The notes below the pieces were generated by a model that saw only the letters and a program-made list of their open reading frames with translations, did not search any database and had not been told where the DNA came from. The position numbers were made by a program, and so were the translations under genes. From positions 113,952-176,865 of the IMG/VR virus record IMGVR_UViG_3300021403_000003: a stretch of DNA of 62,914 nt, one strand, 5' to 3'. This document shows, piece by piece, positions 44,040 to 58,862 of the stretch (the stretch's first letter is position 1; each line of letters begins with the position of its first letter). The stretch is from a virus. Lineage: Duplodnaviria > Heunggongvirae > Uroviricota > Caudoviricetes.

Positions 44040-44906
44040 CAATGGAAGTTTTGATGGTTTACTTTTCATTAAAAACGACCTAGAATGTTTCTAACGAGTG
44101 AAGCACTGAAATCAGAAATGAACGGTACTTTACTTTTAAGGTGAACGGGACTATACTGTTTGCCTTGTCGAAGAAGGGTTGTCAGAAGATTCGCACTGGT
44201 TGGCTGATGTTGTTGAGCGACGTAGGTCGTTCCGATATCAAGGTACGACGAAACCGATTTTTGACAAGGAACTCGTAACCGAGGTGGCAATCGGTTGCGC
44301 CAGCCACGCGGATAAACCACTCCTTGGTGCCGCTGAAAACAGAAGCATTGTGTTTGATCCCTCACACCAAAAGGGATCTTCTAATTGAAGAATTCTCGTG
44401 CTCAATTGTCAGTCTGACGCACGGAATTATAATGACTGACCACTGTGATCCGAAGTGTTAAAATCGGTGTACGATCACGGTTTCTCGTAATTGGAAATGA
44501 TGAGCCCGTGACCCGTGGTGGGTGACCCATAATAAACGGCCGGAGATTCCTCATACAAGCGACCTAATCAAAGGATAGAGCTGCATCTCAATACTAACTG
44601 CGGCAGTACTGGAATCATCCAAGGTTCCGATGCTTCCCCAACCATTAGAAACGATCGCTGCCACGTGGATTGGTTGGGCACTATTTAGACCCTGAGACCT
44701 CTAATGATGTAGAAGTGGCATCATGACCCAGTGCACAACGCTGCCCGTGGTTTTGGATGTAGGTTCGACTCCTACCAGGGTTGTTCTATTGACGTAACGT
44801 GACTGCACCCACGATAAACGGCAGCGTTGAGAAACGATAAATCTGGATGGAGTATTAACACCATAATAGTGTAATTATGTCCTGGCTGGGTGGACAGTAA
44901 CCCAGC
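44040..44906 (+). ncRNA. large ornate ncRNA, GOLLD-like
   Basis: No credible ORF; many helices and pseudoknot pairings; T-loop hairpin at 44759-44775; follows a CTAAATA late-promoter motif; heads the tRNA array. Confidence 0.6.
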
Positions 44907-44915
44907 AAGATTTAT

Positions 44916-44987
44916 TGATCAGTCGTCTAAAATATAAGACACCGGAGTGATCCGGAGATAATGGTGAAATCCCATTTTGATCAGCCA
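44916..44987 (+). ncRNA. tRNA-like RNA with anticodon loop replaced by a GTGA tetraloop
   Basis: 7-bp acceptor stem, D arm GTCT/AGAC, CCGGA-GTGA-TCCGG, T arm AATGG-TGAAATC-CCATT, GCCA end. Confidence 0.7.
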
Positions 44988-44991
44988 ATTT

Positions 44992-45065
44992 GCCTCTTAA
45001 GCATTAAAGTGATGCACCTCGTTTGTACCGAGGAGAATACGGGCCAGTACCGTAATGAGGCTCCA
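44992..45065 (+). tRNA. tRNA-Thr(TGT), atypical T-loop
   Basis: CCTCG-TTTGTAC-CGAGG; T-loop GCCAGTA; CCA end. Confidence 0.8.
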
Positions 45066-45070
45066 GGTTT

Positions 45071-45148
45071 TGGCGGATAGCAATCAAGGTGAATGCGCGT
45101 GACTGTTAATCACGAATGAGCTGGGTTCGATTCCCAGACCGCCAGCCA
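45071..45148 (+). tRNA. tRNA-Asn(GTT)
   Basis: CGTGA-CTGTTAA-TCACG; TTCGATT; CCA. Confidence 0.92.
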
Positions 45149-45163
45149 ATTGGAGGAAGCGTA

Positions 45164-45578
45164 ATGAGATTAAAGAAAGAGATATTGATGACGCTTCCTT
45201 GGGATGAAATGCTCAAACATGTAGGGTTGATTGGTCCTTGTAGAGCTGTAAGAGAACGTTTGCTCATTTAGCAACAAGGTAAATGCGATGTTTGTGGTAT
45301 CCACCAATGGAATGGTAGACCCATTTCATCATATTGATGGAAATCATGCCAACAGGAGCAGAAGCAACCTGAGGATGGTATGTCCGAATTGTCATAGCCA
45401 AACAGACACATTCAGAGTTAAGAATGTGAAGAGACGTAAGGTTCCGGATGATGTCATCATTCAAGCATTACGAGAATGTAATGGTGAAGTGATGAAAGCT
45501 CTTAGGCAAGTGGGATTACCTGATTGTGGTAACTCCTGGAGAAGAGCAGTAAGATTGAAAGAACAAATGCCCTCGTGA
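45164..45578 (+). pseudogene. disrupted HNH homing endonuclease
   Basis: GGAGG-ATG 45164; in-frame TAG at 45269 before QQGKCDVCG..WNGRP; frameshift before HHIDGN..NLRMVCPNCHSQT. Confidence 0.75.
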
Positions 45579-45646
45579 CTGGAATTGGATTTCAGTTTCG
45601 CCTTCTAAGCGAATATATGCAGGTTCGAGTCCTGTCGAGGGTGCCA
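45569..45646 (+). tRNA. tRNA-Arg(TCT)
   Basis: TTCGC-CTTCTAA-GCGAA; CCA. Confidence 0.92.
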
Positions 45647-45652
45647 ATTTTC

Positions 45653-45743
45653 GGGGAATGCAATAAGAGCGGTGTGGACTGCTACCTGGCTGTAACCCAG
45701 GTCCCTTCAGGGCATGAGGTTCGACTCCATCCTTTCCCCACCA
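45653..45743 (+). tRNA. tRNA-Tyr(GTA)
   Basis: CCTGG-CTGTAAC-CCAGG; long variable arm; CCA. Confidence 0.88.
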
Positions 45744-45745
45744 TA

Positions 45746-45990
45746 TTCAGTGGTATAGATCTACAATCGTAGATGAAGGTGCACTAAAGCACCCATCGAG
45801 ATTGGGTCTGTGTAGCGGCAACTACACTCCTTGCCGGGTAATATCACTGAGTTCTTTTGATAAAACTCTTGTGGGAGCAAACCAACGTAGAGGCCTGGGT
45901 AAGCCAGTTCGATCGGGATTGCAACATACCACTGACAATGTATGGGATATGACTGTCCCGCCACAAATAGAGTGTCAGTGCTCTCGTGGC
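45746..45990 (+). ncRNA. one or two structured ncRNAs
   Basis: Closing helix 45746-56/45841-51 with four inner hairpins; second unit with ACTGACA 45931-37 / TGTCAGT 45973-79 pseudoknot. Confidence 0.55.
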
Positions 45991-56827: not shown

Positions 56828-56845
56828 TTGACGAGGAGTTAGATT

Positions 56846-57133
56846 ATGAAATTTAAACCAACATTCAATCGTGTTCAAGTTGAAAAATACGAACTCAAAG
56901 AAGTTCGAACAGGATTGATTCAAGTTTCTGATGAACGCAATCCCTTTGGTGTAGCCAAAATTGTTGCTATTGGTCCAATGGCTTTCAAACGTGAAGAAGG
57001 TAAAGTGACTCACGATGTGAATATTGGTGATCTTGTTGTGTATGAGAAAGGTAAGCTTGCTACAATCAGTTTAGGTGCATATCAGATATATGTTATGAAT
57101 GATGATGCCATTACTGGCAAGTACGAGGGATAA
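56846..57133 (+). CDS. groES: GroES-like co-chaperonin
   Basis: FKPTFNRVQV, TGLI, KIVAIGP, VNIGDLVVY, VMNDDAI.G. Confidence 0.85.
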   Translation: MKFKPTFNRVQVEKYELKEVRTGLIQVSDERNPFGVAKIVAIGPMAFKREEGKVTHDVNIGDLVVYEKGKLATISLGAYQIYVMNDDAITGKYEG

Positions 57134-57316
57134 ATGGCAATCGAAATAATCAATGAAAAACCTTTGCAGCTCACACGTGAGCAATATGAAAGGCTTAATC
57201 AAGAATATCAAAAAGCATTCATGTTCTACTCAGCAACGGTACCTTCATTTGAGACCTGGGCAAGGAACAAAGTTAATGAAGGTCTCATTGAAGGCCAGAA
57301 GTTGCTTACGGAATAA
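57134..57316 (+). CDS. hypothetical protein
   Basis: GAGGG RBS; immediately follows groES. Confidence 0.6.
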   Translation: MAIEIINEKPLQLTREQYERLNQEYQKAFMFYSATVPSFETWARNKVNEGLIEGQKLLTE

Positions 57317-57324
57317 TCATTGAC

Positions 57325-57353
57325 TTTACTCTTCCATAAGAAATCAGTAAACT
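57325..57353 (+). promoter_or_regulatory. early promoter TTTACT-N17-TAAACT
   Basis: Intergenic with exact 17-nt spacing; a CTAAATA motif follows at 57367. Confidence 0.55.
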
Positions 57354-57402
57354 TCGAGAACAGGTCCTAAATATCTGCTTCTAAAGGTGAAATGGTGATT
57401 TT

Positions 57403-58020
57403 GTGAGTAAGGAAGTGAAAATTCTCATCACTGATCCAAATGGCAGCCCACGTGAATGGGTTGACTTTTATGTTGCTTGTTGCTATCATGCAAGAGGCAA
57501 GGTGTTGTGGACAGTGGGTGATCCAGTTAAGACATTTTTGGGTGGCAAAAATGCATATGGTATTCAGTCCAGGGTTGATATTGCCCCAGTAACAGGTGTG
57601 ACTGGTCCATTGGTTGGTCAGAAATGGTTGTCCAAGACCTCAAAGTACGCTGAACGTGATATTTTGTATGCACGTGACAGGTTTCTTTGTGCTTATTGTG
57701 GTACAAAGTATCCTGAACCAAAGTTGACAATTGATCATGTGAAGCCGAAGTCTCGTTACAAGGAATTTGGGCTTCCAAAGAGTGAGTTGAATGTTTGGAC
57801 CAATACCGTGACTGCATGCAGATCATGTAATCATTTGAAGGCGGATAAAACTCCTGAAGAAGCTGGAATGCCATTGTTGTATTTGCCATACAAGCCAACT
57901 TTGGCTGAGAAGTACATTCTTAGCCAAAGGCATATCCTTGCTGATCAAATGGAATTTTTGGAAGCAAGAATTCCGAAGAGTTCAAGGCTTTATGTTGATG
58001 GTAAGATAAAGTTGGATTAA
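57403..58020 (+). CDS. HNH endonuclease (McrA-like)
   Basis: LYARDRFLCAYCG, LTIDHVKPKS, WTNTVTACRSCNHLK.DKTPEEAGM. Confidence 0.9.
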   Translation: MSKEVKILITDPNGSPREWVDFYVACCYHARGKVLWTVGDPVKTFLGGKNAYGIQSRVDIAPVTGVTGPLVGQKWLSKTSKYAERDILYARDRFLCAYCGTKYPEPKLTIDHVKPKSRYKEFGLPKSELNVWTNTVTACRSCNHLKADKTPEEAGMPLLYLPYKPTLAEKYILSQRHILADQMEFLEARIPKSSRLYVDGKIKLD

Positions 58021-58023
58021 ATC

Positions 58024-58212
58024 ATGAACTACATGAATGGCTTTTTCCTGGTCGGATTTGTCATTGGTATTGTATTGTTGATTTGGTTGTTGTTTGAGTT
58101 TGTGCTTTGGATTGGTGCAAGTGAGAAAAGACTCAAAGTGACAGGTTGGATTATCTTGACTGGATTATTTGTTGCATTGTTTTTCATGGGTGCAACCTAC
58201 GGAAGTTTTTGA
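58024..58212 (+). CDS. small membrane protein
   Basis: Two TM helices. Confidence 0.65.
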   Translation: MNYMNGFFLVGFVIGIVLLIWLLFEFVLWIGASEKRLKVTGWIILTGLFVALFFMGATYGSF

Positions 58213-58255
58213 GTCAAGACATTTGTGGGAATGAAACACGTAGGAAATTTTGAAA

Positions 58256-58331
58256 GCTCAACGTGGTTGTAATGGTAACACAACTCTCTCGTAAGGAGTG
58301 GTTCCCGGTTCGATTCCGGGCTTGAGCACCA
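58256..58331 (+). tRNA. tRNA-Thr(CGT)
   Basis: ACTCT-CTCGTAA-GGAGT; TTCGATT; ACCA. Confidence 0.88.
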
Positions 58332-58343
58332 TAGAGGTATATC

Positions 58344-58628
58344 ATGAGTGTGAATGGCATACAGAATTATATGACAGCTGATGATCAAGAGAAGCATTAT
58401 GAACGTTATTTGCAAGCTCAATATCAGCAGGTAGTGGAATTCATTTCTTCCGAACAGAACTATGAGGTATTGAGAAATAAACTCAATGATCTCGACAGAG
58501 TGTTGACAAATTTCTTGGGTGAACTGGTCATATCCAGGCCACAACACAGGAGAGCTGACAGCATTCAGAAGCTGGTTGCCGAACTCAAACGAGATTTGAC
58601 ACCAGACTTGGTGAACATAAAGATTTGA
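58344..58628 (+). CDS. hypothetical protein
   Basis: GAGG RBS; helical/coiled ORF. Confidence 0.6.
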   Translation: MSVNGIQNYMTADDQEKHYERYLQAQYQQVVEFISSEQNYEVLRNKLNDLDRVLTNFLGELVISRPQHRRADSIQKLVAELKRDLTPDLVNIKI

Positions 58629-58862
58629 TCTTGTCGACCTATCGCTGGCGGGCTCGTTTTCCGCTAGAGGAAGTTCGCGACATGCTTCAAGGTCACTGGG
58701 AGACGAAAGTCGTTTGTACCAGTCAGATTATGGCATGCAACTCTAACAGACCGAGGTAAACCTTGTGCCTATGAGGTCGGGTTGAGGCAGTCACACTTGT
58801 GACCAGGTGAAAACCTGAGGCAAATGATAGGATAGAACAGAATCGCGGCTATGGACAAGATC
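58627..58862 (+). ncRNA. rnpB: minimal RNase P RNA
   Basis: P1 GATCTTGTC/GACAAGATC; P2 CCTATCG/TGATAGG; P3 CTGGCGGG/TCCGCTAG; CR-I GAGGAAGTTCGCGA pairing with CR-V AGAACAGAATCGCGGCTA (P4 with bulged U). Confidence 0.85.

Follow-up and report, generated by a model that had tools for sequence, protein, structure and literature searches.

Does the dense cluster of tRNA genes near one end of a large phage genome, together with the unusual RNA and protein genes around it, constitute a single viral machine or a collection of parts that lean on the host? The cluster lies in a 62,914-nt stretch of DNA (hereafter the window, whose coordinates are used throughout), which is the last 62.9 kb of IMG/VR record IMGVR_UViG_3300021403_000003, a 176,865-bp record rated complete by CheckV. 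The source is best read as a large (177 kb) uncultured soil T4-like phage. Between positions 44040 and 58862, the initial annotation had proposed a self-contained, coordinated system comprising a full tRNA set, tRNA mimics, ornate noncoding RNAs (ncRNAs), an RNase P RNA, and a ribosome rescue factor with a GGQ motif. Our analysis makes it reasonably probable that this translation-support island is instead an accretion of separately mobile, host-dependent parts, and not one machine. Most of the features in the initial annotation are real, and the most surprising of them, an RNase P-like RNA of minimal size, is well supported.

This RNA occupies 236 nt on the plus strand (58627-58862) and was recognized by a pair of core motifs, by the alignment of its family, and by a score of 156.5 bits with the family covariance model R1 described below. 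It is closed by a perfect 9-bp P1 (58627-58635/58854-58862) and by P2 (58638-58643/58826-58831). These are followed by the P3 hairpin (about 58645-58667), conserved region CR-I (58667-58676), P4 with its bulged U (58672-58680/58843-58850), and a P5-like stem (58681-58685/58733-58737), between whose strands only a vestigial specificity domain (S-domain) of about 47 nt is found (58686-58732). P3, P4, and the P5-like stem are supported by covariation, as is a P15-like stem with GGU, and CR-I is supported by its motif. A short internal domain with a GAAA-capped hairpin, the string GAGGAAGTTC ahead of P4, and the CR-IV-like and CR-V motifs (58820-58851) complete the molecule, while CR-II, CR-III, and nearly the whole specificity domain are absent.

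The identification ran through relatives of the phage, which are designated here by L-numbers (L005, L078, L079, and so on, each a related locus or contig). Contigs with the closest homologs of the GGQ protein were fetched, one of them gave an Rfam match, and the core motifs were then scanned for in the phage's own genome. In L079, a 241-kb contig, positions 9251-9470 matched RF00373 over the full model (53.5 bits, E 3e-12) with CR-I and CR-V aligned, and about 117 model positions were replaced by about 46 nt, which amounts to the deletion of most of the specificity domain. The scan of the phage genome returned a single properly spaced motif pair, at 58667 and 58837. The string AAATGATAGG-ATAGAACAGAA in the window RNA is one base off the corresponding L079 stretch, and the partner strand of P4 changes in step with that of L079. 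RF00010 and RF00373 gave no RNase P match when searched over the whole genome. The RNase P-type RNA of the initial annotation, which had the same 3' limit, thus holds up through homology to the L079 family and through covariation, with Rfam being blind to it.

To examine this family, IMG/VR was scanned with a sequence pattern, yielding 42 matches, and about 17 contigs (12 distinct sequences) proved to be true homologs. RNAalifold placed 27 pairs on these homologs, 17 of them with double compensatory changes. Model R1 is a trimmed covariance model from which P1 and P2 are left out; tested apart from it, these two helices covary as well. Three members that had not been used in building R1 (L137, L221, and L127) were recovered by it. 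In an alignment of 18 members, 98.4% of the paired cells were compatible with pairing, compared to 74% in shuffles and 22-36% with slid partners, and changes on both sides were observed in 15 of the 21 pairs. The covariation score was 0.613 versus 0.164, and 0 of 500 shuffles reached it. Moreover, GAGGAAGTTC and A.AACAGAA...G.CTA are invariant and AGA.AAAT nearly so in a 14-member alignment (A2), with which a 12-member alignment (A1) agrees. The GGU of L15 is not kept by all family members.

The distribution of the family was also examined. A pattern scan of 185,579 prokaryote genomes gave 120+ matches, and among the first 80 listed, which were checked with R1, only one was real, on a 2.3-kb contig of a metagenome-assembled genome. 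A blastn search of GenBank phages with the RNase P-like RNA found no match. Given this near-absence from prokaryote genomes and the lack of a GenBank phage match, the family looks viral and uncultured. Full-text literature searches turned up no report of a phage-encoded RNase P RNA.

Compared with type-A RNase P RNA (E. coli M1, RF00010; about 377 nt), the phage RNA shares P1-P4 with the bulged U, CR-I (GAGGAA-GUUC), a J5/15-like GCAAC.CAAACAG, the P15 stem with GGU, a CR-IV-like AGA.AAAUGA, and CR-V (ACAGAA..CGGCUA), and its CGGGUUG.GGC is the counterpart of the type-A CGGGUAGGCUGC. It differs in lacking CR-II, CR-III, and the specificity domain, in being encoded by a virus, and in escaping detection by Rfam RNase P models. 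Type-T RNase P RNA of the Thermoproteaceae (Pyrobaculum; PMC3579882) is likewise about 200 nt long and has lost the specificity domain while keeping the catalytic core; however, it is archaeal and has archaeal proteins, whereas the phage RNA carries bacterial-type motifs and is not scored by the Rfam type-T model. As judged from sequence and covariation, the assignment of 58627-58862 to a bacterial type-A-derived RNase P RNA that keeps P1-P5, P15, CR-I, CR-IV, CR-V, and the P4 bulged U is well supported.

Such an RNA might nevertheless not be a working enzyme. It could be a look-alike with a regulatory role, titrating host RnpA or skewing processing by competition for pre-tRNA, or a captured host gene in decay. 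The missing S-domain, with which T-loop recognition is lost, would fit this, as would the failure to find a phage RnpA, the absence of the L15 GGU from some members, and the bimodal CCA status of the neighboring tRNAs. However, decay is excluded by strong purifying selection and compensatory changes over the 18 members, and all motifs of the catalytic core are invariant, including the P4 bulged U. Furthermore, the catalytic domain alone is active in vitro (PMC5839562), and a natural, catalytic RNase P without the S-domain exists in type T (PMC3579882). We therefore regard a non-enzymatic look-alike as very unlikely, and we infer that the phage RNA would be catalytic with a protein partner from the host.

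In 12 of 16 loci, the RNase P-like RNA sits inside same-strand tRNA arrays of 8-33 genes. Among such ribozyme-bearing arrays, encoded CCA is an all-or-none property, being present in about 5% of the tRNAs in L084, L112, and L113 versus about 100% in the window, L085, L087, L116, and L049. Agreement between the L15 GGU and encoded CCA was seen in five to six of eight arrays, so that the two track each other loosely and not convincingly.

The second non-tRNA component is a stand-alone GGQ protein of 129 aa (52751-53140, plus strand). Pfam RF-1 (PF00472) matches it with 65.8 bits against a gathering score of 35, and it carries a GAGGQ motif, so that the GGQ gene reported earlier is upheld. The protein aligns to residues 191-317 of T. 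maritima RF1 (PDB 2fvo), that is, to domain 3 and the C-terminal helix, and the confinement of the alignment to this region leaves no stop-codon recognition domains 2/4 (with PxT or SPF). With RF1/RF2 it shares the GGQ loop, the domain-3 fold signature, the IRxY..NRVxDH segment, and the C-terminal helix. It is not a full RF1 or RF2, however, as the codon-reading domains are absent and the NCBIfam scores for prfA and prfB (the latter 66.6 against a cut-off of 370) are far too low. The GGQ-only factors ArfB, PrfH, and mitochondrial C12orf65/mtRF-R were also compared. ArfB (YaeJ) was rejected on its sub-cut-off score (NF006718, 18.6 against 100) and because the phage protein has no basic C-terminal tail, its C-terminus aligning instead to the RF1 terminal helix. 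PrfH was rejected on its score as well (TIGR03072, 48.4 against 166.65), together with the lack of PrfH-specific domains and of an RtcB partner in the genome. By these alignments, the protein is the catalytic, peptidyl-tRNA-hydrolyzing third of a class-I release factor and a member of a large phage family. To call it a rescue factor is reasonable as a reading of its function, not as a family membership. In about 29 of 49 viral loci, a homolog comes directly after a tRNA array on the same strand.

Do these components belong together? Wherever the GGQ gene and the ribozyme both occur, they are neighbors. Six such cases were found, at distances of 23 nt (L080), 0.5 kb (L137 and L079), 0.6 kb (L093), 3.5 kb (L049), and 5.5 kb (the window). 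However, the ribozyme is present in only 2 of 49 GGQ-bearing viral records in a whole-record search and in 1 of 80 metagenome GGQ loci, and the GGQ gene is present in 1 of 13 ribozyme-bearing records; these counts are lower bounds, many records being fragments, and two records that are ≥95% complete lack the GGQ gene. The claim of a coordinated module is thus not supported: the pair is linked and adjacent beyond this genome, but its members mostly occur apart. Independent occurrence of the components across phages is the very outcome that the initial annotation had named as speaking against it. Nor is the system self-contained: a search of the 177-kb genome detected no RnpA, CCA-adding enzyme, PTH2 (PF01981), Rnl2-type RNA ligase, RtcB, or Ro60. 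In a search of the genome for a T4 Rnl1-type ligase, the control itself gave no match anywhere. As a separate observation, the GGQ gene and mini RNase P of L079 have, no more than 10 kb away (12499-14025 and neighboring genes), genes for a TROVE+VWA (Ro60-like) protein, PTH2, ribosomal protein S21, and an RNA ligase, and L081 adds Thg1; the RNA-repair neighborhoods of these two contigs are richer than that of the window.

The same linkage data bear on the possibility that the island is one coordinated counter-defense system, in which the phage would mature its tRNAs with its own RNase P, oppose nuclease-resistant or decoy tRNA shapes to PrrC, RloC, PARIS AriB, and retron effectors, and rescue the ribosomes that come to a halt once host tRNAs are cut. 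This idea fits, by analogy, the literature in which phage tRNAs defeat tRNA-cleaving defenses (PMC10264068, PMC11555353, PMC11464382). A stretch of 15 kb holds all the parts in one orientation, the RNase P-like RNA and a GGQ gene sit side by side in six independent loci, and the GGQ genes of relatives lie near Ro60, RNA ligase, PTH2, and Thg1 genes. Yet the components are mostly apart (2/49 and 1/13 records), and the repair enzymes Rnl2-type RNA ligase, RtcB, and Ro60 were not detected in the genome. Most anticodon nucleases recognize the anticodon loop, which the mimics do not have, so a decoy role is not obvious, and the spacers of the array show neither covariation nor conservation. We consider a single counter-defense system unlikely.

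The tRNA genes themselves are abundant. ARAGORN in default mode called 32 tRNAs, all on the plus strand (31 within 44688-52504 and one at 58256), and these are its only default calls in the whole 177-kb genome, with neither a tRNA nor a tmRNA called at about 8-11 kb, some 100 kb upstream of the window; Rfam gave 29 tRNA matches at the gathering score. Further genes came from relaxed ARAGORN and reading by eye: tRNAs for Ser (TGA and GCT) and Arg (ACG), another Pro-TGG, a Tyr-GTA whose variable arm is long, a His-GTG whose acceptor stem has 8 bp, and three tRNA-like genes of aberrant form. The total is about 40 tRNA or tRNA-like genes covering all 20 amino acids, as had been proposed, with His and Tyr covered only below default thresholds. 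The main co-oriented array (45071-52504, plus strand) holds about 37 of these genes and by itself covers all 20 amino acids. A tRNA-Thr(CGU) called by both default ARAGORN and Rfam lies outside it (58256-58331, plus strand), 295 nt upstream of the RNase P-like RNA. CCA is encoded in at least 37 of the 40 genes. Thirteen intergenic gaps are only 3-8 nt long and U-rich, and an (A)ATTT(T/C) leader precedes nearly every tRNA, including those next to long spacers, which confirms the short AATTT-like linkers described earlier.

Like T4-type clusters and other large phage tRNA arrays, the island has co-oriented, closely spaced tRNAs, presumably polycistronic precursors, and interrupting homing endonucleases; it differs in its approximately 40 genes, its coverage of all 20 amino acids, and the addition of a ribozyme, mimics, and a GGQ gene. 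Three open reading frames (ORFs) interrupt the array, all on the plus strand. The first (45288-45578) is an HNH-type homing endonuclease ORF (Pfam HNH, 19.2 bits, slightly under the cut-off) with similar DNA in L042. The second (48398-48823) encodes 141 aa with a hydrophobic N-terminus, and it matched no protein family and has no IMG/VR relatives. The third (51522-51959) is a His-Me finger homing endonuclease ORF (Pfam zf-His_Me_endon, 29.7 bits) that is kept in L078 (gene 850-1215). L078 is the closest relative, 79% identical to the window. In it, a 383-nt insertion with a 109-aa ORF (L078:1283-1665) lies between tRNA-Lys and tRNA-Met, two genes that are only a 5-nt linker (52027-52031) apart in the window; this indicates traffic of mobile ORFs inside the array.

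Several of the tRNA genes have unusual forms. In bacteria, tRNA-Leu is normally class II. The four tRNA-Leu genes of the array (TAG, TAA, GAG, and CAA; 47659-47735, 48830-48907, 48973-49049, and 50933-51009) are 77-78 nt long with a short variable arm, and their 5' acceptor and D-arm sequence is common to tRNA-Arg TCT and CCT (compare 45569-45646 and 47849-47924). From this shared sequence, the tRNA-Leu and tRNA-Arg genes look as if they were one paralog family diversified through anticodon change. Short Leu tRNAs are also present in the phage arrays L014, L016, L029, L042, L047, and L049. Another tRNA (46536-46629) is 92-94 nt long and has the anticodon UAU (called Ile). Its anticodon stem has 6 bp, its variable arm is long, and Rfam favors the tRNA-Sec model for it (33.9 bits); look-alikes exist in L029, L030, L047, L084, L085, and L113. 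In addition, in an aberrant tRNA-Phe(GAA)-like gene (49416-49529, plus strand), which is followed by GCCA, about 40 extra nt after position 9 part the acceptor 5' strand and U8-A9 from the D stem. Rfam matches it partially (49467-49522, 37.3 bits, model positions 10-63), the gene was also read by eye, and a normal tRNA-Phe is present at 51129-51203.

The initial annotation had counted at least four anticodon-less tRNA mimics. Two stand, both on the plus strand, while other odd elements (44688-44783, 49416-49529, and 50736-50822) retain anticodon-type loops and are aberrant tRNA-like genes. Mimic (a) (47762-47841) is a permuted tRNA without an anticodon loop or CCA. It begins with the 3' strand of the anticodon stem and continues through a 4-nt variable loop, the T-arm, a 7-bp acceptor sealed by a GATT loop, U8-A9, the D-arm, and the 5' strand of the anticodon stem, so that the chain ends sit in the anticodon stem. 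When its halves were rejoined through a placeholder loop, default ARAGORN called a canonical 75-nt tRNA. In mimic (b) (47541-47649), GGGAG/CTCCC replaces the anticodon stem, and a T-arm comes next. The stem in the acceptor position, which carries a structured insert of 49 nt (47574-47622), and a hairpin in the D position follow. In a rotation test, 821 of 2199 trials of mimic (a) and 18 of 8977 of mimic (b), with the 49-nt insert removed, were called as tRNA, versus 0 of 30,000 controls. The two mimics have the same topology and unrelated sequences, and they lie 110 nt apart with one tRNA-Leu between them.

The closest known counterparts are YrlA RNAs, which in bacteria and phages sit beside Ro60; one YrlA, whose acceptor stem has 7 bp, is cleaved by RNase P and acquires CCA (PMC4201824). 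Mimic (a) shares with YrlA (RF02553; bacteria and mycobacteriophages) the permuted order of T-arm, closed acceptor, and D-arm and the placement of the ends in a stem that replaces the anticodon arm, and its score over model positions 28-81, 26.1 bits, is far under the gathering score (69). Unlike YrlA, it is embedded between decoding tRNAs in a phage genome without an Ro60/Rsr match (TROVE/Ro60, PF05731, gave none in the 177-kb genome), and its nearest approach to the Ro-binding motif GNCGAAN0-1G (PMC4201824) is GGCGAGG, with one mismatch. No protein partner for the mimics, whether Ro60-like or DUF-type, was found among the neighboring ORFs. Owing to its sealed 7-bp acceptor, mimic (a) is a predicted RNase P substrate. 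That it is a true permuted tRNA gene matured by circularization was set aside, as there is no anticodon-loop sequence at its ends and no ligase was detected. The GATT sealing loop resembles a discriminator plus the usual leader minus CCA, which suggests an origin from two tandem tRNA copies, and by this resemblance the permuted mimics probably arose from tandem tRNA duplicates. Most likely, they act as non-decoding ligands of tRNA-binding proteins.

An IMG/VR pattern scan for T-arm, closed stem, and D-arm returned only neighboring ordinary tRNAs. A similar element ends the 38-tRNA array of L042 (YrlA score 32.9 bits). There, L042:16640-16800 forms a two-elbow structure in which an outer stem and an inner, sealed stem resembling an acceptor join two D-arm/T-arm sets, and the direct repeat CGCAACGA flanks this structure. 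L005:18480-18860 and L012:18850-19230 each contain a tandem pair of permuted tRNA-like units (T-arm, a long acceptor stem that is sealed, D-arm) flanked by short direct repeats. The acceptor changes between both phages are compensatory, and Rfam matches the units to the tRNA-like domain of permuted beta-proteobacterial tmRNA (24.5 bits).

What, then, are the longer spacers, which had been described as folding into closed structures? As a class they are indeed structured. Their mean fold z versus shuffles is -2.14 (n=24), compared to -0.25 for 34 size-matched coding controls (Mann-Whitney p ~8e-7) and -1.82 for real tRNAs, and their G+C content is 0.42-0.52 versus about 0.38 for the genome. None of them could be confirmed individually as an RNA gene. 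Within 43500-59500 at E<=5, the spacers matched no Rfam family, including GOLLD, ROOL, and other large ornate RNAs, and Rfam models of self-cleaving ribozymes (theta/HDV-like and hammerhead) gave no match. When each spacer was searched against about 200 related loci (blastn and nhmmer), only 51010-51128 matched, in L078, and no homologs were found among GenBank phages. Between the window and L078, this is the only conserved spacer, with several others showing indels or being replaced or absent. The description of the long spacers as ornate ncRNAs is thus unproven. Probably, the class is made up of hairpins that serve in processing or insulation, of scars of decayed tRNAs and endonuclease insertions, and perhaps of a few genuine RNAs.

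The head of the array (44040-44906, plus strand) is a G+C-rich, ORF-poor candidate structured RNA with fold z of -2.47 and -2.94 and long-range helices. Promoter-like and terminator-like sites are present in it, including a terminator-like hairpin at 44885-44906, and the aberrant tRNA-like element at 44688-44783 has a T-arm and a 6-bp acceptor without CCA. This region has no homologs in the approximately 200 loci or GenBank phages and no Rfam family at E<=5.

The state of the spacers raises the question of whether function is confined to the tRNAs, the ribozyme, and the GGQ gene, with the mimics and long spacers being by-products of array turnover, such as duplicated tRNA halves, endonuclease scars, and decayed tRNAs. 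Elements of this kind would fold well merely through tRNA descent. The spacer indels between the window and L078, the ORF-bearing insertion found between two tRNAs in L078 only, the lack of spacer homologs elsewhere, the two endonuclease ORFs, the aberrant tRNA-like genes, and a sealing loop in mimic (a) that reads like the junction expected between two tandem tRNA copies all point this way. Nevertheless, mimic (a) retains every helix and the T-/D-loop signature and has a fold z of -4.21, the second-lowest among the spacers tested, and the two mimics, of the same topology and unrelated sequence, lie 110 nt apart. Similar elements with a sealed acceptor are found in further phage arrays, and YrlA RNAs do have a function (PMC4201824). 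In addition, the spacers as a class exceed coding DNA in G+C content and fold stability. We consider the by-product explanation rather unlikely.

All large ORFs around the island lie on the plus strand, among them genes for a family-B DNA polymerase, a DnaB-like helicase, ribonucleotide reductase, and NAD salvage. The G+C content rises from about 0.38 in the genome to 0.46-0.49 over 44-52 kb. Genes flanking the island encode a GroES-like co-chaperonin, two MazG-like pyrophosphohydrolases, and NMNAT-Nudix and NAMPT, which form an NAD-salvage pair (43118-43537, 56489-56827, 56846-57133, and 59715-62250). Searches of GenBank phages with the island (megablast and blastn) gave tRNA matches only. 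The best match in a metagenome scan with the GGQ protein had 55% identity, and thus no close relative of the island is found there; relative-locus searches queried with a ligase and with the 141-aa ORF gave no useful relatives. Island DNA was found in one sequencing run only, a soil metagenome that is possibly the source sample.

A more ambitious reading would join the parts into one line that sustains phage translation under host tRNA attack or shutdown, namely a virus-owned maturation and rescue pathway around the viral ribozyme. The S-domain-less ribozyme, free of T-loop proofreading, would favor phage pre-tRNAs bearing CCA and U-rich leaders; it would also cleave the mimics at their sealed acceptors, and the resulting two-piece RNAs would engage host factors that bind tRNA, and the GGQ protein would clear ribosomes stalled through tRNA depletion. 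We think that such a unified pathway is highly improbable. Under the reading that we prefer, an accretion of host-dependent parts, the approximately 38 decoding tRNAs on one strand are presumably transcribed as polycistronic precursors, whose mature 5' ends need an RNase P cut after the U-rich leader and whose 3' ends already carry CCA. The 236-nt RNA may pair with host RnpA and add 5'-leader cleavage capacity for the phage pre-tRNA load, and the GGQ protein may free peptides from stalled ribosomes without reading stop codons.

Several results weigh against this functional picture. Rfam RNase P models (RF00010, RF00011, RF00373, RF02357, and others) gave no match to the window copy even at E<=10 on 361 nt, and the best homolog, that of L079, is itself sub-threshold, with 53.5 bits against a gathering score of 84. 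With no phage RnpA found, activity would rest on some protein of the host. A distance of 6.1 kb, holding about 15 protein genes, separates the window ribozyme from the main array. Arrays with the ribozyme are not enriched in encoded CCA or U-rich leaders over arrays without it, and co-adaptation of the ribozyme and its substrates is therefore not supported. No homologs of the mimics' own sequence were detected, so the case for selection on them comes solely from their intact tRNA geometry. Finally, the run search listed no RNA sequencing runs carrying the island.

Since the parts are modular accessories that are often found apart, they should be studied singly and not as a fixed system. The island indicates that YrlA-type mimics exist without Ro60 and that a large stand-alone GGQ family travels with phage tRNA arrays, and both point to a so far uncharacterized form of phage interference with translation quality control. 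RNase P RNA is, to our knowledge, among the few ribozymes common to all cellular life, and the RNase P-like ribozyme family described here deserves experimental testing. If its assignment is true, it would offer mechanistic studies and synthetic biology of tRNA arrays a minimal ribozyme that is ready to use and would raise the question of how substrates are recognized without a specificity domain. It would also mean that phages take over tRNA 5' maturation besides tRNA supply.

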